NCBI GenBank assembly: GCA_029258795.1 | Contig: JAPDKB010000009.1 | Location: 1-64,000, forward strand | Direction of reading: 5' to 3' | Origin: an archaeon | Lineage (GTDB): Archaea > EX4484-52 > WAPT01 | Length of the DNA stretch: 64,000 nt | Shown here: one piece after another, positions 1 through 55,066 of the stretch | How the letters are laid out: the number at the start of each line of letters is the position of its first letter | Position numbering within the stretch: the stretch's first letter is position 1 | Translations under genes and position numbers: made by a program | The notes under the pieces: model-generated | Database searches by the model: none | What the model was told of the DNA's origin: nothing | Seen by the model: the letters and a program-made list of their open reading frames with translations, nothing else

Positions 1-208
1 ACAGTATTCCCCCTCCTGTAGGGCCAACATACTCCTTCAGTATTTTGAGCACCTCTGCCATGAAGTAGTCGGCACCCATCAGCACCAATCTCTTACCATT
101 CACTATAAAGTTACCGTTGGTATCGCCGTGTGCCTTCAGGCCCACAAGCCTCTTGAACTCACCATCCCTTATCTTTTCCATTTTTTTGATATCAAGCTGA
201 ACATCCAC
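1..208 (-). CDS. V4R/XylR-N-like protein, partial (runs off window start)
   Basis: GAGGTGA RBS then GTG; translation VDVQLDIKKMEKIRDGEFKRLVGLKAHGDTNGNFIVNGKRLVLMGADYF...EYVGPTGGGIL resembles the N-terminus of the neighbouring V4R protein. Confidence 0.6.
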   Translation of the reverse strand, partial: MDVQLDIKKMEKIRDGEFKRLVGLKAHGDTNGNFIVNGKRLVLMGADYFMAEVLKILKEYVGPTGGGIL

Positions 209-224
209 TTTTATCACCTCATAT

Positions 225-4355: not shown

Positions 4356-5260
4356 GAAAATATCCCGTGTCCTATCACCATTAACAAGTACCCTGTGATG
4401 GATAATACTAAAGAATGCTTCAGTCCATCAGTAAATGTGCCTTCAGCAAGTTTTCCTATAGCCAGTCCTGAAAAGAATCCCTGTATCAGAACCATTCTTA
4501 GAAAAAGTTTGTGATATTCCTCCAAGCTTATGCCAGAACCCATAACTGCCATACCTCCTCCCATAAATGTTGCTGCTTTACCTCCGAGTTCTGTTGCACC
4601 ACCACCGAGAAGAGAAGGCAAGAGAAAATCTTGCAATGCTATCATTATGCCTATAAAGATAAAGAATATGAGATAGCCCTGTGTCCTCTGACTGGATATC
4701 ATGGACCTTCTTTCATCCTTTATTTTTTCAACTTCGACTGTGGCTTTGGTAACAGAATCTATGGCTTCAGCCAGTTCTCCACCACTTCTATGTGCTTCTA
4801 TTATTACTGACACCGCTCTCGCTATCACTCTGCTTCTTGTGGCTTTCATGAACTCTTTCAAGGCGGTTTCAAAGGGCACGCCCCATGAAATCTGCGCCAC
4901 CATTCTTTTAACCAGTGGGTTAAGCGCTCCATAATCCGCTTTTGAAGCATATTTTAAGGATAGGGGTAAGCTCATTCCACCACGTAGACCCTCAACAACT
5001 TCTCTCATGAAGTCCGGGAAGCGCTCCTCCATCTCCTTTATCCTCCTGTACTTCATGTATCTCATCATGGCCGGAGGTACAATCACCACTACTAACGCTA
5101 CAGCATTGAGCACATTGCTCAAAAGAGCCATCCCGGGAATGCGAGAAATATACAATACGTTGAAGATATAGATAAATACACCTCCGATAAGCGATGCTAC
5201 AAGCATATATATCTCTTCTTTCTCGATGTTGGCTTCCTCCAAAAACTTGTTGAAATCCAT
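4352..5260 (-). CDS. type II secretion F / TadC-ArlJ platform protein
   Basis: EERFPDFMREVVEGLRGGMSL, YGALN, SGGEL, QGFFSGLAIGKL motifs. Confidence 0.9.
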   Translation of the reverse strand: MDFNKFLEEANIEKEEIYMLVASLIGGVFIYIFNVLYISRIPGMALLSNVLNAVALVVVIVPPAMMRYMKYRRIKEMEERFPDFMREVVEGLRGGMSLPLSLKYASKADYGALNPLVKRMVAQISWGVPFETALKEFMKATRSRVIARAVSVIIEAHRSGGELAEAIDSVTKATVEVEKIKDERRSMISSQRTQGYLIFFIFIGIMIALQDFLLPSLLGGGATELGGKAATFMGGGMAVMGSGISLEEYHKLFLRMVLIQGFFSGLAIGKLAEGTFTDGLKHSLVLSITGYLLMVIGHGIFS

Positions 5261-23974: not shown

Positions 23975-24319
23975 TCAGTAAGCCGACTCAACGATTTTGT
24001 TGAATCTCCAGAGCGAGTATGCGATCAGGATACCTGAAGGCAGTACTGAGAAAACCGTCAGAAAAGAATACACAAAATAATTTGAGGAATAATAGAATGC
24101 TGCAAGAGTAAAAATTGCTATGATGATTGCACCGAGTCCCATAAGCATAAAGATATTTCTTCCTTGGTTGAACAGGGTTATCGCCCCGAGTTTGGGATTT
24201 ATTTTTATTTTCTTGAGAAGTTCTCTAGTATAATAAGCACATATCACAGCCAGCATTGCATCAATTAACAGCATTGCTGCTATGACGTTTGTATTTTGGA
24301 TTATTCCTTCACCGAACAT
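23975..24319 (-). CDS. small 3-TM membrane protein
   Basis: hydrophobic ORF, GAGGTG RBS, similar layout to upstream ORF. Confidence 0.6.
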   Translation of the reverse strand: MFGEGIIQNTNVIAAMLLIDAMLAVICAYYTRELLKKIKINPKLGAITLFNQGRNIFMLMGLGAIIIAIFTLAAFYYSSNYFVYSFLTVFSVLPSGILIAYSLWRFNKIVESAY

Positions 24320-24322
24320 TTC

Positions 24323-24664
24323 TCACACCTTTTTGAGGTTTCTGCCTAAGGTTATGAAGCACATGGCTATCAGGATTGTACTAGCCATCATGATGGGTAC
24401 ATACAGTATCATAACCCACAACGGAAAAACAGGGTTTATGAGATAAGCTGCTAGGAACTCAATCATAAGAAAAATCACTGCAAGCACCATTCCCCAGAAA
24501 AGATAGTTGAAAGAGTTGAGCAGGATTTCTGGTTTATTAATGAGTGTCACGAGATACTCTTTTTTAACTGTAACTAGACGTATCGAATACCAAGTAATCA
24601 GAAGGAAAAATATCCCTACGAGTATGAAAGAAAATGTCTCCGGATTGATGGTGAACATTGCCAT
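24323..24664 (-). CDS. small 3-TM membrane protein
   Basis: three hydrophobic segments; start placed at ATG 24664. Confidence 0.6.
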   Translation of the reverse strand: MAMFTINPETFSFILVGIFFLLITWYSIRLVTVKKEYLVTLINKPEILLNSFNYLFWGMVLAVIFLMIEFLAAYLINPVFPLWVMILYVPIMMASTILIAMCFITLGRNLKKV

Positions 24665-24764
24665 AAACCAATATTTTGGGCCGTCCTTTATATTATTTAT
24701 AGAAGAAAGCACATATGTATTCGTTTTTTAACGACCCCAGAGGTACTGCCGTTTAGCATGGGCC

Positions 24765-27705
<2,941 letters not shown>

Positions 27706-27768
27706 GCCCATTTTGCTGCGGCAGCACCTCTGGGGGATCATTGGGAAGCATGAAAAACTTCCCTACCC

Positions 27769-27802
27769 TCAGTCCCCGAGACGATGGCTCGGGAACATCA
27801 TC
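27769..27802 (-). other. C/D-like kink-turn hairpin in the ITS
   Basis: GATGATG-TTCCCGAG-loop-CTCGGGGA-CTGA; such L7Ae-binding motifs are known in archaeal pre-rRNA spacers. Confidence 0.6.
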
Positions 27803-27864
27803 TTGGTTTTATTTACCTGTTGAAAGGGAAAGTAAAGGAAGTGTTGTGTGGCCCTTAGATGGGA

Positions 27865-27938
27865 TGGACCCTGAGGGATTTGAACCCTCGGCCTCCGCCT
27901 TGCAAGGGCGGCGATCTTCCAGGCTGATCTAAGGGCCC
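27865..27938 (-). tRNA. tRNA-Ala(TGC), spacer tRNA, no intron
   Basis: uninterrupted cloverleaf, CT-TGC-AA loop, between 16S and 23S. Confidence 0.95.
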
Positions 27939-28024
27939 TTAAAAATGGCGTTTATTTTTCATCGGGGAGAATTTAGTGCTCCGCCAGTGTCCGTGCCATG
28001 CCCGCCACTTTTTGACGGGCGTCG

Positions 28025-28068
<44 letters not shown>

Positions 28069-28150
28069 AACTTAGCCCCCCTCGCGGAGCCCTAGTTCCA
28101 CCCTCCCGGAAAGAGAGGACTTCACTAGGACCCCACTCGGGTGGCTTGAT

Positions 28151-28182
<32 letters not shown>

Positions 28183-28472
28183 GCCGAACGATGCTAACGT
28201 TCGGCTACTAGGGATTCCGCCGTCACGACGGCGAGTTGCAGCCGTCGATCTGTACTGAGACCGGGTTTCGAGGATTAGCTTCCCCTTTCGGGGTCGCATC
28301 CCATTGTCCCGGCCATTGTTGCCCGCGTGTAGCCCGGGGGATTCGGACCATACAGACCTGCCGTCGCCCGCTCCTTCCTCCCGCTTGGCGCGGGCAGTCC
28401 CCCATGAGTGCCGGTGCCACAAGCGTGACACCGTCGCAACATGGGGCGCGGGTCTCGCTCGTTACCTGACTT

Positions 28473-28557
<85 letters not shown>

Positions 28558-28667
28558 ATACCTCTCAGCGCGTCAGGTAAGCCCTTCAGGCTGACCGTCA
28601 TCCTGCTGTCACCCCCGGTGAGGTTCCCGGCGTTGAATCCCATTAAACCGCAGGCCTCACCCCTTGT

Positions 28668-28724
<57 letters not shown>

Positions 28725-28777
28725 CCGCTTAACGGCTTCCCTACGGCACGGCCGAAGCTCGAGACTTCGGCCATACC

Positions 28778-28833
<56 letters not shown>

Positions 28834-28909
28834 TGGCTTTCGCCCCTCACCGTCGGACCCGTTCTAGCCGAGCGCCTTCGCCACAGGTGGTCCCCCCGGG
28901 ATTACAGGA

Positions 28910-28955
28910 ATGTGCTTGCGCAAGCAAGCACATTAAAGCGAGCTTGCTCGCGAAA
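28910..28955 (-). other. 16S insertion/intron in h23 at ~696/697 (46 nt)
   Basis: removal restores GGTGAAATCCTG; relaxed BHB GTGA:GCAC with 10-bp stem GCGAGCAAGC:GCTTGCTTGC. Confidence 0.75.
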
Positions 28956-29948
28956 TTTCACCCCTACCCCGGGAGTACCCTCGGCTCCTCCCGGTCCCAA
29001 GGTGGGCAGTTTGTCCGGCAAGCCCTGCAGTTTTCTGCAGGATTTCACCGGACACTTACCCACCCGGCTACGGGCGCTTTAGGCCCAGTAATCGCGGCCG
29101 CCACTTGCGGGTCCGCTATTACCGCGGCGGCTGCCAGCGGTATTGCCCCCCGCTTATTCCCGGAGCTGTTTAGGCTCCGGAAAAGCCTGCACCCGAAGCG
29201 AGCGCAGGCACTTCGGCTGACTCCGTCACGGTTGCCCGCATTGCGGAAGTTTCGCGACTGCTGCGCCCCGTAGGGCCTGGGGTCGTGTCTCAGACCCCAT
29301 GTGGGGGCTCCTGCTCTCACAGCCCCTACGGATTATCGGCACGTCAGGTATTTACCCTGACGTCAACCTAATCCGCCGCACCCCCACCCTCGGGCGCTTA
29401 CGCTTTCGGGGATGGATCCTTCCAGACCTCATCCCCTATGGGGGATTAGCCTCAGTTTCCCGAGGTTATCCCCCACCCGAGGACAGGTTAGGTACGTGTT
29501 ACTCACCCGTCCGCCGGTGCTCTCGGCCTAGAAAGGCCAAGAGCCCCAGACTCGCATGTCTTAGTCCCAGCCGAATAGCAGCGGCCTCTGGCAGGATCAA
29601 CCAGAATTGGCGGGGCGAGAGCACACGCTCTCGTCCCTGCTCCGGCACTGGAGCACTGGCGGAGTTTCACCATCTCCCCTCATTTAGACCTACTCATCCG
29701 AGCAGGTCCACATCGATTTGGGGTACGGTGGATAGCATCTATCATCGTTTGCGGAGCACGATTATTTGCTCCGCATACTCGGATGCTAACGCCCCATACC
29801 CCGAAGGTTGATGCTCTACAGCTCGAGCACCCGGTGCTTGCGCGCAAGCACCACGTATCATGAATCTCATCCAAAATAAGAATCGATTCACTCATCCGTG
29901 CAAGGTAACATAAATCATTACATAAAACATTTAAATACTTTGTGGTAG

Positions 29949-30065
29949 GGTGGGGGCCGGGATTTTCGGGATGTGTGTTGATTTTGGTGAGGAATTTTAC
30001 ACTTTCGAACCCGGGTCAGAGGCTCCACAGGCCTCCATTCTAGACCAGGCTAAACTACCCCCACC
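29949..30065 (-). tRNA. tRNA-His(GTG) with encoded G-1 and 41-nt intron at 59/60 (29963-30003)
   Basis: CT-GTG-GA loop; TTCG AA|A...CGAA AA|T BHB. Confidence 0.9.
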
Positions 30066-48880: not shown

Positions 48881-49573
48881 TTACTTTTTGCTTTTGGTGG
48901 TTGATTTTTTGGTGGTCTTGGAAGAGCTCTTACTTTTTGCTTTTGAACTGCCTGTGGCTTTTTTGGTTTTACCTTCCACTTTTTCCTTTTTCTTAACCTC
49001 TTTCTTCCTCTCATCACCCTTCTTCTCAGCCGTCTTCTTTTCCGCTTTTTTGGCTTTCTCCTTTACAGCTTTCTTCTCCTCAGCTTCCTCCTCTTCCTTT
49101 GTTTCCTCAACCTTCTTCTCTTCCTTCGCCTTTTCCTCCTTCTCTTTCTTTTTCTTCTCCTCTCTTGCCTTCAATTCAAGATATGAACGCCTCTTTATCC
49201 TTGGATTGAGCACTTTGATGCCAAGTTCTTCAGCTTTCTTCAGGATTTCAAGCTTCTTCTTTGTGCCCACACATGAAGCAACTCTAACAGCTTCCTCTTC
49301 CCTGTTAACCCTTTCAAGATCGGTAGGGTTGTAAACAATCACCTCCCTATAACCAGAAGGATGAAGGTGTCTCGCTTCTTTAGGACCGCCATATCCGGAG
49401 CAAGGCATTTTTGGCTTTCCGAATATTCTTTTCCTCATTTTGTTGTGAATTCCCTTCGGTTTTCTGTAGCCACTCCTGCTTATCTTCTTTATTCTATCTC
49501 CTAAATACCTCCTGAATTTGGGCTTCCTCTTCTTTACTTCCTCTCTGAGCTTTACAAGCTCCTTCATTGCCAT
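48881..49573 (-). CDS. rpl32e: ribosomal protein eL32 with long charged C-terminal tail
   Basis: RKPKG..NKMR, GYG..RHLHPSG, KVLNP followed by ~95-aa K/E tail. Confidence 0.95.
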   Translation of the reverse strand: MAMKELVKLREEVKKRKPKFRRYLGDRIKKISRSGYRKPKGIHNKMRKRIFGKPKMPCSGYGGPKEARHLHPSGYREVIVYNPTDLERVNREEEAVRVASCVGTKKKLEILKKAEELGIKVLNPRIKRRSYLELKAREEKKKKEKEEKAKEEKKVEETKEEEEAEEKKAVKEKAKKAEKKTAEKKGDERKKEVKKKEKVEGKTKKATGSSKAKSKSSSKTTKKSTTKSKK

Positions 49574-50139
49574 AGATCCTCACTCCTCTTCGGCTTCTTG
49601 TAAATATAAATACCATCGAAGAATATTCGCGGATCTCTTCCTGCACGATATTTGCATGCTTGCTCCATGTTGGCTGCCGTTTGCCCCACATCTTCGATGT
49701 TTATGCCTTCCACCACAATCTCTTCCTTATCTATCTTGACCTTGACATCTCCCACTATCTTTGCCTTTCTAGCACCCTTCTCTCCCATGAAATTGCTTAT
49801 GACTATGTAATCTCCTTCCTGCTTCACAGTCATCGGGAAGTGGGTGTAAACTATCTTTAACCGGGCTTCAAAGCCCCTGGCAACACCATACATCATGTTT
49901 TTGATGTGAGACACCCATGTACCGACTATGGCTTTATCCTTTCTCTTTTTGGACTCGGTCCTGACTTTAACAACACCATCATCAACCATAACCTTCACGC
50001 GGGGGTGGGAGAACATTCTTCTTAACTCTCCCTTCTCTCCTTTAACAATGAGAGTATCGCCTTCCAAGCTTACCTCTATTCCTTCCGGAATCTTTACTTC
50101 CCTTTCAATCACCGTTTGCATCTGCTCTTGCTGGCTCAT
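49564..50139 (-). CDS. rpl6: ribosomal protein uL6
   Basis: VYTHFPM, NFMGE, VGQTAA, DPRIFFDGIY. Confidence 0.96.
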   Translation of the reverse strand: MSQQEQMQTVIEREVKIPEGIEVSLEGDTLIVKGEKGELRRMFSHPRVKVMVDDGVVKVRTESKKRKDKAIVGTWVSHIKNMMYGVARGFEARLKIVYTHFPMTVKQEGDYIVISNFMGEKGARKAKIVGDVKVKIDKEEIVVEGINIEDVGQTAANMEQACKYRAGRDPRIFFDGIYIYKKPKRSEDLWQ

Positions 50140-50167
50140 CTCATCTCACCATCAAAAATCACGCAGT

Positions 50168-50551
50168 TCAGTAAACATAAGCAAGCAAAGCCCCACCCTT
50201 TCTTCCCTTAACTTTCGTGTGTGCGACCACACCTTCGTCGGTGGTGATTATGAGCAATCCGACTCCTGCTGCAGGCAAATACTGCTTCTCCCACTCATCA
50301 AACTCATCCTTTTTAACATAAAATCTTGGCCTTATGGCGTTGCAGTTATTGATTCTGCCTTTAAGTTCTATTCTGAATTTTCCGCCCTTACCATCATCGA
50401 TGTACTCGAAGTTTCCTATGTATCCGTACTCCTGCATAACCTTGAGCACATCCCTGACTAACCTTGAGGCGGGAACAACACACTCCTTCTTTCCAACCTT
50501 CTCAGCGTTCTTGATGATTGACATGACATCTGACAGCAAATCGTGCCTCAT
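50168..50551 (-). CDS. rps8: ribosomal protein uS8
   Basis: IKNAEK, GYIGNFE..DDGKGG, GGALLAYVY. Confidence 0.96.
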   Translation of the reverse strand: MRHDLLSDVMSIIKNAEKVGKKECVVPASRLVRDVLKVMQEYGYIGNFEYIDDGKGGKFRIELKGRINNCNAIRPRFYVKKDEFDEWEKQYLPAAGVGLLIITTDEGVVAHTKVKGRKGGALLAYVY

Positions 50552-50562
50552 GATTCACACCT

Positions 50563-50799
50563 TTATTCCAGCTTTTTCCACCCCATCTCTTTGGCTACCT
50601 CCCTGAAGCATCTTCTGCAGATGTTGAGATCATATTTCCTTATCAAGCTCCTGCCCATGTTGCCGCATCTTATGCATCTAACCTTTCCATATCCGGTCGT
50701 TCTCTCCTTCCTTGTATTGTGTTTTAACACCTTCTTCATCTTTCCCGGCTTGTTCTGGTATATTTTCAGGGATTTTCTGAAGTCACCCATAACCATCAC
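50563..50799 (-). CDS. rps14: ribosomal protein uS14 with N-terminal extension
   Basis: CIRCG..IRKY.L..CRRCFRE. Confidence 0.94.
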   Translation of the reverse strand: MMVMGDFRKSLKIYQNKPGKMKKVLKHNTRKERTTGYGKVRCIRCGNMGRSLIRKYDLNICRRCFREVAKEMGWKKLE

Positions 50800-51353
50800 C
50801 CTTCCACAACCTCAACACCAAATTTCTCTTTCATGAATTGGATTGCCTCTTCTCTTTTTATTCTGTGGCTCCTGCCCACCTTCGTTTTTCTTAGCTTCCT
50901 TCTTTTGACCCTAAAACCGGGTCTTTCCAGTTGAATTGCCACATCCATACCAAAAATACCAATGCTGGGATCATATTTTATGCCGGGAATGTCCAGATAT
51001 TCCTTTATTCCAAAATTGACGTTACCTTCATTATCAAAACAGCTCATTCTTAACTTCTTATCCACTGCCTGCAACAGCTTCTCGGCAAGCTCTTCAGCAT
51101 CCTTGCCACGCAGAGTAACTTTAACACCGATCGGCAATCCTCGCCTTATACCAAAAGTTCTGGCCTTTCGTGTGGCTTTCGTCTTCACCGGCTTTTTACC
51201 TGTGAGCTTTTCAAGCAATCTGTATGCTTTTTCCACTTCAGCAACAGGATCCTTCGTGCCTATATTCAGGACTAGCTTACCTATTCTTATTTCCCTCATG
51301 GGATTTGTCTTCGCTTCCTTACCTTTCTGAGCTTGAGTTGTGTTCTCGGCCAT
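50796..51353 (-). CDS. rpl5: ribosomal protein uL5
   Basis: NPMR, FGIRRG.PIG.KVTLRG, YDPSIGIFGMD. Confidence 0.96.
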   Translation of the reverse strand: MAENTTQAQKGKEAKTNPMREIRIGKLVLNIGTKDPVAEVEKAYRLLEKLTGKKPVKTKATRKARTFGIRRGLPIGVKVTLRGKDAEELAEKLLQAVDKKLRMSCFDNEGNVNFGIKEYLDIPGIKYDPSIGIFGMDVAIQLERPGFRVKRRKLRKTKVGRSHRIKREEAIQFMKEKFGVEVVEG

Positions 51354-51378
51354 CCACACTCACCATCAAAAAGCATGA

Positions 51379-52101
51379 CTAATGTACGGTTATTTCGGGC
51401 GCGTCATCGCCCACCACAAAAACATAATCAGCAAGCGTAGTAACTTTCTTATCACCTACCTTCAGAGTTATTCTGTTGGGGTCAAAACCCTTTATTATCT
51501 CAATCTGCTCCACCTTACCGAGTTCGCCAGCCAACTTACCTCTGTAAATCTGTGCAACCTTTCCAACTTCCATCTTTATGTGCTTGAGGATCTTCTGATC
51601 AGGCAAGCTTATGAGCAGGGAGTCCATGGTTTTGTAAACATCCTCCTTCGGATTGCAGGGATCCTTAACCTTGATAAGTATGTTCCTGCCATCGTGAAGG
51701 TTGAGCTGGATGTGACCGCCCTTAACCACGGTCTTGTTCATTATCCTGCAGAGCTTCATGTTCGCTTCCTTTTCCGGGATTTCGACCAGCACAAACCTCT
51801 CCTTCTTTGGAACGACTCTGTAGTGCTTGCCAGCATCAGGTAGGGATATGACATCCATCACTCCGACTCCAAAGCGGTCATCCTTGCGCACAACACCATC
51901 CACAACAACCTTTCCGGCAGCCACAATTTTCTTGGCTTCTCTTGCGTTTCTTGCGTAACCGAGCATGTCTCGCAACACTATTCTTAAAGGTATTGCTCTA
52001 TCATGCGGATGTCCGCCCCCCTTCACAACAGGAGCAAATTTGCTAACCTTGACTGGTATGCTGTAAACCTTTGGTGCAGCATATCTTTTTAGATGTGCCA
52101 T
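51379..52101 (-). CDS. rps4e: ribosomal protein eS4
   Basis: HLKRYAAP, VGVMDV, QLNLHDGRN. Confidence 0.96.
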   Translation of the reverse strand: MAHLKRYAAPKVYSIPVKVSKFAPVVKGGGHPHDRAIPLRIVLRDMLGYARNAREAKKIVAAGKVVVDGVVRKDDRFGVGVMDVISLPDAGKHYRVVPKKERFVLVEIPEKEANMKLCRIMNKTVVKGGHIQLNLHDGRNILIKVKDPCNPKEDVYKTMDSLLISLPDQKILKHIKMEVGKVAQIYRGKLAGELGKVEQIEIIKGFDPNRITLKVGDKKVTTLADYVFVVGDDAPEITVH

Positions 52102-52520
52102 CAGCTGCTCACCTCTTCTTTAGCAGATTCACCACTTTTTCTTGCAATCTTTTTAATTCTTTTCTCATCTTCCGTGTTCAACTCCACGATCTGAAGGTTG
52201 GATGGGTGGAGGGGTACAAGCACCTCACTACCATCCGTCTTCTTCCTCTTGACATTTTCAACATAAACGCGTCCTTTCTTTAGATTAACTCTTGTAACCT
52301 TACCCTCAACACCCTTAAATGAACCCCTCAACACCCGTACGACATCTCCTGTTCTTACAACAACATTTCTCCTTCCGTATTTCTTTCGTAGCTCTTTTGA
52401 GAGGTTGACTGAGAGGAATTTCCTCCTTATGTGGAGAGGAGCATTAGCTATGTATTTCCTCTGTTTTCTCGGGCTTTTGCTGCGCACCCAGTTCCTTGAA
52501 AACTTGACCTTCATAACCAT
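52101..52520 (-). CDS. rpl24: ribosomal protein uL24
   Basis: [24 protein letters not shown]. Confidence 0.96.
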
Positions 52521-52528
52521 TCACCCCT

Positions 52529-52927
52529 TCACATCACTATGCTTGCTATTTTACCCACAGCCGGAAACCTTTCCACCGCCTCTTTTGCTACAACACCCTT
52601 TATTTCCCTTCCTCTTGGCTCCATCCTTTCATTTATGAGCACCGCAGCATTATCCTCAAAACAGACAAACATACCGTTTCTTCTCCTGTATTTTCTTCTC
52701 TGCCTGACCACCACCGCATGCACAACTTCATTCCTTATCTTTTCATTACCCTTTATAACGGTGCAGATCACAACATCTCCCACTCCTGCTCTTGCAATCC
52801 TCCTTCTCGTGCCTTTGTAACCCTTGACACCTATCACTTTGAGTAGCTTAGCTCCAGTATTATCTATACATTTCAGTACTGTACCTATCTGCACGGCTTT
52901 TATCGGTTTGACGCTTATGGCTTTCAT
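52529..52927 (-). CDS. rpl14: ribosomal protein uL14
   Basis: DNTGAK, AGVGD, FEDNAAV. Confidence 0.96.
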   Translation of the reverse strand: MKAISVKPIKAVQIGTVLKCIDNTGAKLLKVIGVKGYKGTRRRIARAGVGDVVICTVIKGNEKIRNEVVHAVVVRQRRKYRRRNGMFVCFEDNAAVLINERMEPRGREIKGVVAKEAVERFPAVGKIASIVM

Positions 52928-52939
52928 ATGCGGCACCCG

Positions 52940-53356
52940 TTACGCTTCTTTCACCACTTCTATCACAACAAAGCTCTTGGTTTTGCTTAGCGGCTTACAC
53001 TCCGCAATTCTAACGATATCTCCTTCTTTAGCGTTTATGCATGGCGGGTTGTGTGCAGCCACTTTCGTTCTGCAGCGCATGTATCTCTTCAGCTTTTTGA
53101 TTTTTCTCAAGTATTCCCAACCAACAACAACTGTCTTATCCATTTTGGCTGAAAGCACCACACCCTGAAAAATCTTACCCCTTATCTTGAGGTGACCATG
53201 ATAAGGACATTTTTCATCATTACAAACCTTCTTTGGCGGGTTTTTAACCTCAATACCTATATCCCTTATTTTTATTTTCACTTCTTTTTTCTTCTCAGCA
53301 GTCTTCTTACCACTACTTTCGCTCTTCTTTCCTTTTTGGGCTGTTTTCTCAGCCAT
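52940..53356 (-). CDS. rps17: ribosomal protein uS17 with charged N-terminal extension
   Basis: CNDEKCPYHG, AHNPPC, ECKPLSKTK. Confidence 0.96.
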   Translation of the reverse strand: MAEKTAQKGKKSESSGKKTAEKKKEVKIKIRDIGIEVKNPPKKVCNDEKCPYHGHLKIRGKIFQGVVLSAKMDKTVVVGWEYLRKIKKLKRYMRCRTKVAAHNPPCINAKEGDIVRIAECKPLSKTKSFVVIEVVKEA

Positions 53357-53654
53357 TCAATCCACCCCATATTTTTCGTGGAAACCTTTTCTTTATCCTA
53401 TCTTCGGGCCTGCCCTGAATCACCTTACCATCCACTTCCACCACGCTCCCATCCGGAAGCGTGAAGTGGAACACACAGTTCTTCTTTTCAACCCTGATCT
53501 CCCTGCCATCTCGCTTTCTTATCACAAGCGTGTTTTTCGTTTCATTTATGACTTGCCCTTCAACCCCCACAAGCGTGGGGTCACTGCTTTTTACTATTTT
53601 AACATCGAGGCCTATGAGCTCATGCCTGACGAGGTTCTCTGGCTTTATTGGCAT
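53349..53654 (-). CDS. rnp1: RNase P protein Rpp29
   Basis: HELIGL, G.VINETKN, GRPEDR. Confidence 0.93.
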   Translation of the reverse strand: MPIKPENLVRHELIGLDVKIVKSSDPTLVGVEGQVINETKNTLVIRKRDGREIRVEKKNCVFHFTLPDGSVVEVDGKVIQGRPEDRIKKRFPRKIWGGLNG

Positions 53655-53658
53655 CGGC

Positions 53659-53964
53659 TCACTCCACTATCGAGCTTTCCGGAAAGCCCTCCTCGATGAG
53701 CATCTTTTTGACCTTCAGGCGATGATCTCCCTGCAGTTCTATCTTACCGTCCTTGTAGGTACCACCACATGCAAGTTTTTTCTTGAACTTCTTGAGCAGT
53801 GATTTGATGTCTATGCTCTTTTCATCAAGCCCTTCTATAATCGTTATGGTTTTGCCGAATTTCCTCTTTTCCACATAAATTTTAATTTTCTGCTTTTCCC
53901 TCGCTATGGTTTCGCAGATGCACAGGTCTTTTGGAAGACCACAAACATTACATATCTCCGTCAT
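53659..53964 (-). CDS. sui1: translation initiation factor aIF1/SUI1
   Basis: [23 protein letters not shown]. Confidence 0.95.
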
Positions 53965-54179
53965 TTCTTACTAAGCACCTCTTTTTCCCTTTTTATGGTC
54001 AATATCCTTGCTATAGTTCTTTTTATCTCTCTGACCTTACCTGGATTGTCCGGCACGCCTCCCACCTTTGCCTTTGCTCTTTCTTTCATCAGCTCCATTC
54101 TCAAATCTGCGAGTTTCTTCTCAAGTTCTTCGTCACTCATGTCTCTTATCTGTGTTGCCTTGAGTATTGCCATGATCAT
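53961..54179 (-). CDS. rpl29: ribosomal protein uL29
   Basis: [24 protein letters not shown]. Confidence 0.95.
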
Positions 54180-55066
54180 TCACCACTTTTCTTTTCCTCA
54201 TTTTTCTTCACAGAGCCCGAAGCATCAGCATCGGATTTCTTTCCCTTATCCATACCTTCCTTTTTCTTGACCTCTTTCTTCCTCTCATCACCCTTCTTCT
54301 CAGCCGTCTTCTTTTCCGCTTTTTTTGCCTTCTCCTTTACAGCGTTCTTCTCATCACTCCCTTCCTTTGTTTCCTCAACCTTTTCCTCCTCCTTCTCAGC
54401 TTCCTCCTCTTCCTTATCCTCTTCTTTCTTTACCGCGAACTTCTTAATGATGTCCTCACTTATTTCTACTTCTCCCCGCGCAACTCTCTTTTCAAGTTCC
54501 ATCTCAGGAGGCATAAAAGGCATTATTTCGACCTTTACTCCGATAACTCCCGGCTTGAGCACGGCTTGTTCCTTCGCAACATCCACGTATTCCTGAGCTG
54601 GATGTCCGCATTTCATGACATAACCAGCAACATACTTTTCTGTTCTGTGTCTCTCTCCCGTGAGCTTCCCGCTTACATCTATTTCAACACCAACCGCTCC
54701 AGCTTCCATGATCCTGTTGAGATACATGGTGACTACGCGCTTATAGTGCAAGCCCCTTTCAAGAGCGAATTTTATGCGTTTGGCAACCACCTTTGCATCA
54801 AGATAAGGATTATCAACACCTTTAACCTCTATCTGCGGGTTCTCTATGCCAAACTCCTCCTTCATTTTTTCCTGAATCTTGGCTATTCTTTCTCCACCCC
54901 TACCTATGACAAGTGCGGGTCTTCCAGCATATATAACTATTCTGGTTGCCAGAGGAGTCCTCTTAATCTCACACCGGCTGTACTCCGCTCTATCCAGCTC
55001 TTTATCCAAAAATTCAGCTATCTTCATGTTCACTATTCCTTCCTGAACGAACTTTCTCTCTATCAT
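54176..55066 (-). CDS. rps3: ribosomal protein uS3 with long charged C-terminal tail
   Basis: P.LVIGRGG KH motif, SGKL, GVIGVKV; ~85-aa K/E tail. Confidence 0.96.

Follow-up and report, generated by a model that had tools for sequence, protein, structure and literature searches.

We analyzed a window of 64,000 nucleotides (nt; positions 1 to 64,000 of contig JAPDKB010000009.1, assembly GCA_029258795.1) from a small vent DPANN (Nanobdellati) archaeon, whose genome (G000) is 96% complete, with 1,168,407 bases distributed over 23 contigs. The window contains the main archaeal ribosomal-protein operon, which is encoded on the minus strand and extends from uL3 to SecY. Two of its genes, coding for the large-subunit protein eL32 and the small-subunit protein uS3, end in long charged tails, and within these tails there is a stretch of near-identical DNA, which we refer to as the cassette. 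The two genes, the cassette copies and the shared blocks next to them are as follows.

48881..49573, minus strand: eL32 gene, 230 amino acids (aa), with PF01655 at residues 17-123 (E 2.1e-36) followed by a C-terminal tail of 107 aa rich in lysine and glutamate (K/E)
48983..49078, minus strand: cassette copy in the eL32 tail (residues 166-197), with weaker similarity out to 49166
49079..49114, minus strand: upstream shared blocks in eL32, EEEEAE at 49079-49099 and KVEETKE at 49094-49114, from blastn and alignment
54176..55066, minus strand: uS3 gene, 296 aa, with Pfam domains KH_2 and S3_C at residues 15-181 and a tail of ~99 aa
54257..54352, minus strand: cassette copy in the uS3 tail (residues 239-270), with weaker similarity out to 54430
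54362..54415, minus strand: upstream shared blocks in uS3, KVEETKE at 54362-54382, colinear, and EEEEAE at 54395-54415, displaced

No Pfam domain falls in either of the C-terminal tails (~100 residues each). Lysine and glutamate make up 37% and 21% of the eL32 tail (K+E 58%) and 29% and 26% of the uS3 tail (K+E 55%), and the coding strand of the tail DNA is 80–81% purine, compared with 62–64% in the cores. Both are low-complexity extensions of ribosomal proteins, i.e. biased segments outside the Pfam core that are also present in orthologues, and in the 36 genomes of the order from which we obtained uS3 and eL32 tails these measure 23–151 aa. K/E-rich segments are present in 26 open reading frames (ORFs) of the G000 genome. 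One example is eL31 (PF01198; G000:C2:45436-45987, L008 1074-1622), which has a K/E-rich C-terminal tail of ~95 residues that does not include the cassette; its tail shows such long charged extensions to be characteristic of the lineage.

The two cassette copies are direct repeats with a spacing of 5274 nt, both in frame on the minus strand and both inside a single contig of 104,676 nt. They are identical at 92 of 96 nt (48983-49078 and 54257-54352), or at 95 of 100 nt over 48983-49082 and 54257-54356, with a longest exact stretch of 56 nt. Of the four differences in the cassette, three are synonymous (48995/54269, 49052/54326 and 49055/54329), and the only nonsynonymous one (49070/54344) is a Lys/Asn change. 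The initial annotation of this DNA had reported this match and its largely synonymous differences, and the alignment bears both out, at a level far above chance. The similarity also extends colinearly upstream, with gapped blastn alignments of 145 nt at 90% (two gaps) and 184 nt at 85%. Two additional blocks had been described as shared in permuted order, which holds for EEEEAE, a separate 21-nt exact blastn match (49079-49099 and 54395-54415) on opposite sides of the cassette, but not for KVEETKE, which is colinear with the cassette in both genes. The cores of eL32 and uS3 are unrelated and BLASTP matches between the proteins are confined to the tails, such that the tract is far more alike than its surroundings, as is seen in ectopic conversion between non-allelic loci.

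There are exactly two cassette sites in the whole genome (E 4.6e-46), and the next best match has an E value of 0.02. A search for further copies among proteins gave the same answer: with eL32 residues 146-200 as query against 5.8 billion proteins, the two proteins of the window were the only matches among 1850 candidates (126–403 residues). Exact 28-mer scans of metagenome and genome contig collections, in which the window's own records are possibly absent, gave no matches, and the only finds of protein-based scans were the two congeners plus a pair of short metagenome contigs not extending to eL32. These data bear on two alternatives. The first is that two low-complexity K/E-coding stretches resemble each other by chance or convergence, for which the 26 ORFs with K/E-rich segments and the common occurrence of weak (60–75%) matches between tails could be invoked. 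However, the identity extends to synonymous sites, and the local DNA score of 223 between the uS3 and eL32 tails compares with 32 ± 5 for a codon-shuffle null (z 37) and with a maximum of 70 among 1026 between-family pairs (mean 31, standard deviation 8); the likelihood of a chance origin is close to nil. The second alternative is a miniature mobile or hairpin repeat resembling repetitive extragenic palindromes (REP) or miniature inverted-repeat transposable elements (MITE) and sitting in frame, or foreign DNA that entered both tails. This too is very improbable, with only the two genomic copies, no matches in the 28-mer scans, no inverted repeats, and a fold energy of only -1.1 to -3.3 kcal/mol (z-scores -0.4 to -1.0). 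No Rfam family is matched, and the only hit is a sub-threshold one to Histone3 at 53920-53965.

A third alternative is an assembly error, either duplication of a repeat or its chimeric placement; the genome is metagenome-assembled, in 23 contigs. We checked the assembly on k-mer contigs of public runs, and such contigs lose rare variants. Two sets are informative: X1, which may represent the sample the genome came from, and X2, from a separate study, whose strain differs from the window at 7 of 1394 nt (~0.5%). In both sets there are contigs that run from unique flanking sequence into each copy, from both sides. All of them break within the repeat at the same offset (49025 and 54299), as is expected at a 56-nt exact core. 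X2 agrees with the window at seven of eight copy-distinguishing sites, and possibly at the eighth, as one unlisted difference on its 54299-54822 contig may or may not fall there. The two copies also differ from each other at four positions, both are in frame, each has gene-specific sequence on both sides, and they are interior to their contig. Because both copies are present with their private variants and unique flanks in the contigs of two studies, they are not a product of misassembly, and an artefact of this type seems highly unlikely.

The same contigs bear on the stability of the region. The initial annotation had suggested that the repeats could delete about 5 kb of essential genes, and the logic is sound for direct repeats with a 56-nt exact core; however, no contig joining 49025 to 54299, the expected deletion joint, was seen in the public k-mer contigs, in which rare variants are invisible. 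Three other candidate joints (48995>53123, 48998>49082 and 54427>49140) were set aside as noise, because their sides are short or their depth does not match that of the organism. There is one strain indel in the eL32 tail, an in-frame deletion of 9 nt at 49060-49069 in strain X4.

The same operon is present in two genomes of the same genus (G001 and G002), and these provide the age of the cassette. Both proteins have K/E tails in both congeners (57 and 65 aa in uS3, 110 and 113 aa in eL32), and there is no clear tract shared between the uS3 and eL32 tails of either, the best DNA match being 12–16 nt. The cassette was also not found in the uS3 tail of a further relative (metagenome contig L078), where the tail is different again. 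The congener uS3 proteins are 257 and 265 aa long, the G000 protein with its 296 aa being 31–39 residues longer. Between the two cassette copies the proportion of synonymous sites that differ (pS) is 3/16.3 = 0.18, whereas it is 0.81–0.86, and thus saturated, between G000 and G001 orthologues; synonymous divergence (dS) between G001 and G002 is 0.11–0.19. Similarity within the genome is therefore greater than that between orthologues, a signature of conversion, and the low pS between copies together with the saturated orthologues indicates that the copying took place long after G000 and its congeners had separated. It predates the divergence of the X2 strain. The near-identity at synonymous sites and the lack of the tract in both congeners agree with the earlier proposal that the tail segment was copied at the DNA level between a small- and a large-subunit protein.

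The explanation we favor, and in our view very probably the correct one, is that the tract is the result of a recent non-reciprocal ectopic recombination between the purine-rich tail DNA of eL32 and uS3 within the one operon. The event may have been gene-conversion-like or a template switch. The partners would have been the low-complexity K/E-tail segments of two non-homologous genes 5.27 kb apart on the same strand, with their purine tracts perhaps playing a role, and one tail would have received ~100–185 nt from the other, in frame. The likely interval is after the split from the two sequenced congeners and before the strains of the two studies diverged. On this view the copy was tolerated because what the tails must preserve is their composition and reading frame and not an exact sequence. 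As to direction, the eL32 copy aligns colinearly and without gaps with its orthologues and the G000 uS3 is longer than those of the congeners, which together favor eL32 as the donor. We regard eL32 as the somewhat better candidate for this role.

If tail DNA is exchanged in this manner, comparable events might be apparent in related genomes, and we compared the two tails within the genomes of the order. Among 42 genomes, both tails could be extracted from 36; the six not included are G012, G013, G029 and G040 (no uS3 match), G036 (uS3 cut by the contig end) and G041 (the contig ends before eL32). In five of the 36, the uS3-eL32 tail score is above the between-family maximum: G005 (300), G000 (223), G027 (84), G021 (83) and G007 (75). 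The clearest case is G005, a member of another family, in which the Pfam-confirmed uS3 and eL32 genes have a different cassette of 160 nt in common, identical at 156 positions (97.5%). Its two copies are:

L063 1042-1201 (contig C95): G005 cassette copy, with gene-specific flanks on both sides
L064 135-294 (contig C84): G005 cassette copy, with gene-specific flanks on both sides

A second case is in G021, which belongs to a third family (L085/L086) and has 113 identical positions over ~155 nt (76%) between uS3 and eL32, in the same frame. From its sequence, this looks like an older, decayed copy. G006, the sole G021-sister genome in which both tails could be compared, has a score at the null level. 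Codon-shuffle tests were done for 35 genomes, with G017 excluded because its uS3 frame enters a non-tail domain. The DNA-level test gives p<=0.01 in six of the 35 (G005, G000, G003, G021, G001 and G018), and the protein-level test in five (G005, G000, G021, G033 and G027). Self-comparison of the operon in the 19 genomes where it is available as a single stretch revealed no comparable tract between other gene pairs. Recurrence with different tracts in related lineages, as in G005 and G021, is a further property of conversion, and on our reading the same process has acted on these two tails independently in further families of the order, with modules exchanged now and then and subsequently drifting apart. 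The initial annotation had offered homogenisation by conversion as an option. This is right insofar as the uS3 and eL32 tails have different cassettes in common elsewhere in the order, in further families, but G001 and G002 share nothing clear and X2 is unchanged at seven, possibly eight, of the distinguishing sites; the exchange is thus episodic and not continuous.

Several candidates and departures emerged from the same survey. Matches to the uL24 tail in G034, G027 and G026 (41–66 nt, 74–88%) were judged to be compositional. A 143-nt repeat in G006 was rejected as a tail cassette because it is outside the tails. It is inverted, 89% identical and divided between two contigs (L071 2-138 and L072 380-522); on one it is downstream of SUI1, and on the other it is partly within an ORF that we take to be DUF192-like and partly in the spacer downstream of eL32. 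In G017 (L087, G017:C46:10300-12400) the uS3 frame continues for 204 residues past the core, in a globular-looking segment with a DxG-type start that is presumably HAD-hydrolase-like, and this may be either a fusion or a lost stop codon. In G014 (L052, G014:C62:1-8200) there are in-frame stops in the uS3 and eL32 matches, and the operon stretch contains short non-coding repeats (e.g. 2206-2315 and 5076-5187, 75%).

Some of the observations weigh against recent ectopic recombination, or limit how far it can be generalized. First, the surveyed genomes are kin, metagenome-assembled and in many cases fragmented, and in G005 the uS3 and eL32 genes are on short separate contigs. Second, the shuffles erase shared acidic-to-basic gradients, and the cases with z of about 3 are weak; the matches in G003, G001, G018, G027, G033 and G007 could derive from shared compositional gradients. 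Third, the k-mer contigs break in the 56-nt core, so that it is the assembly that links one half of each copy to the other. Fourth, when the cassette copies are compared with the congener tails by local alignment, all eight codon-shuffle tests give p>0.05 (best p 0.052, with G001 uS3). The cues to the donor also conflict, in that the GDERKKEV part is closer to the uS3 tail of the congeners than to their eL32 tail. Finally, only one of the four differences between the copies is nonsynonymous although ~83% of sites are nonsynonymous (p of about 0.02 by a binomial estimate), which is a hint that the peptide is under purifying selection.

The last of these points belongs to a fourth alternative, in which the cassette has a function of its own, for example as a binding tag or nucleic-acid coat, and selection keeps it alike on proteins of both subunits, with conversion serving that selection. 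The initial annotation had raised a similar idea, and the net charge of the cassette (+7 to +8) and the fact that uS3 and eL32 also have cassettes in common in at least two further families are compatible with it. However, both congeners and the further relative keep their tails without a shared tract, G000, G005 and G021 each have a cassette of different sequence, the tails across the order are not alignable beyond composition, and neither structural model gives the cassette a confident structure. A functional module of this sort therefore seems unlikely, although less so than the other three alternatives.

The structural context was obtained from AlphaFold2 models built with order-wide alignments. 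The eL32 model has a confident core, one long helix at residues 124-179 with a predicted local distance difference test score (pLDDT) of 86 falling to 53, and a disordered region at 180-230. In the uS3 model, a confident core is followed by a helix at 204-238 (pLDDT 56–62) and a disordered region at 239-296. The eL32 copy of the cassette spans the predicted end of the helix and the start of the disordered end, and the uS3 copy is in a non-helical part of the model (pLDDT 32–43), such that the cassette is mostly in the lysine-rich disordered part. The description of these tails as disordered in the initial annotation thus fits the cassette itself, but not the proximal tail of each protein, which is predicted to be helical. 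On these models, the tails could be appendages at the surface of the ribosome, consisting of a charged-helix spacer and a flexible basic end that makes nonspecific contact with ribosomal RNA (rRNA) or other nucleic acid.

A third gene in the operon, coding for uS17, had been suggested as a further carrier of the cassette.

52940-53356, minus strand: uS17 gene, identified with Pfam
53289..53308, minus strand: 20-nt match in the uS17 N-terminal extension, 19/20 nt, E 0.02

We have rejected this candidate. The local score is only 35, unrelated sites in the genome have E values (0.04) close to that of the 20-nt match, and the N-terminal motif has its own orthologous counterpart in G001 and G002; the resemblance is at noise level and reflects either chance or native uS17 sequence. 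The uS17 N-terminal extension has a deletion of 6 nt at 53266 in strains X2 and X3. Like the 9-nt deletion in the eL32 tail of strain X4, it is in frame, which fits translated, frame-constrained sequence.

Other features of the genome were noted. At window positions 24000-30000 the G+C content is 53–61%, compared with ~44% elsewhere, and this stretch is probably the rRNA operon of a thermophile. There are repeats at contig ends: C5 1-220 (window 1-220) resembles C1 187911-188130, and C6 1-394 resembles C1 187578-187971, at 91–93% identity. The uS3 C-terminus is Gly-Glu in seven of 35 extracted tails (G000, G001, G002, G005, G019, G022 and G023), and a gene for a RimK-like ligase lies just past the window end (G000:C5:64683-65246). 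RimK adds glutamates to the C-terminal Glu of bacterial S6. A link between RimK and the Gly-Glu ends was considered and dropped; RimK is present in 37 of the 42 genomes of the order and its co-occurrence is non-discriminating.

The shared tract gives a direct view of how such tails evolve: in essential single-copy genes, low-complexity ends change not only by slippage and point mutation but also by the copying and pasting of DNA from an unrelated gene. It also has practical consequences, as ribosomal-protein tails may give false signals of homology and are best trimmed from marker-gene phylogenies of DPANN archaea. Such repeats break k-mer assemblies in the most-used marker operon, and as direct repeats they flank ~5 kb of essential genes. 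The variants represent natural 'tail-swaps' with which the role of lineage-typical tails could be probed. A broader possibility, which we offer only tentatively and consider rather less probable than the single event described here, is that the charged tails of DPANN ribosomal proteins constitute a shared pool of exchangeable low-complexity modules, with recombination moving in-frame segments between non-homologous small- and large-subunit proteins and with retention by selection on charge pattern, perhaps for a common partner. If true, this would be a prokaryotic analogue of exon shuffling, taking place within essential operons, and the sequence of a tail would mirror exchange at the level of the genome and not the descent of its gene.

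Our literature search revealed, in the library covered, no paper on DNA tracts common to the tails of different ribosomal proteins, although there are several systems with which these tails can be compared. The proximal tails (eL32 124-179 and uS3 204-238), with their predicted long isolated K/E helices, may resemble the ER/K charged single alpha-helices known as SAH domains, as presented in the portion of PMC5812594 used here. They differ in that the helices are predictions (pLDDT 53–86) and the cassette is mostly past the helix, in the disordered lysine-rich part. Archaeal S3 is listed among the proteins richest in low-complexity regions, and regions rich in A, E and K are given as common in ribosomal proteins with slippage and recombination as possible origins, in the sections of Ntountoumi et al. 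(2019, PMC6821194) relevant here. The same DNA tract in two different ribosomal proteins goes beyond what those sections report.

Extensions of a similar type are found in eukaryotes. Mosquito work by Hernandez and Fallon in 2007 reportedly concerns histone-H1-like lysine-rich tails on RpS6 and RpL23a. The lysine-rich H1-like tail of mosquito RpS6 has been attributed to convergent or independent evolution, at least in the part of the account by Zhai and Fallon (2005, PMC548281) considered here. The mosquito tails are like those of eL32 and uS3 in being lysine-rich low-complexity C-terminal extensions that resemble each other and another protein. Unlike these convergent tails, as that part of the account has them, the cassette copies in the tails of the window are nearly identical in DNA at synonymous sites, which shows direct copying.

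The closest parallel is with ectopic gene conversion, for which the tufA/tufB genes and the rRNA operons are prokaryotic examples, along with concerted evolution. Concerted evolution of duplicated prokaryotic genes is documented in the portion of a survey (PMC6053082) drawn on here. As in the conversion it describes, two loci in one genome are more alike than are orthologues, and the exchange appears to be non-reciprocal, within one chromosome, and recurrent across lineages. Unlike the paralogues treated in that portion, the partners here are non-homologous essential genes of which only the low-complexity tails exchange, and the tracts are short (~100–185 nt) and decay between events.

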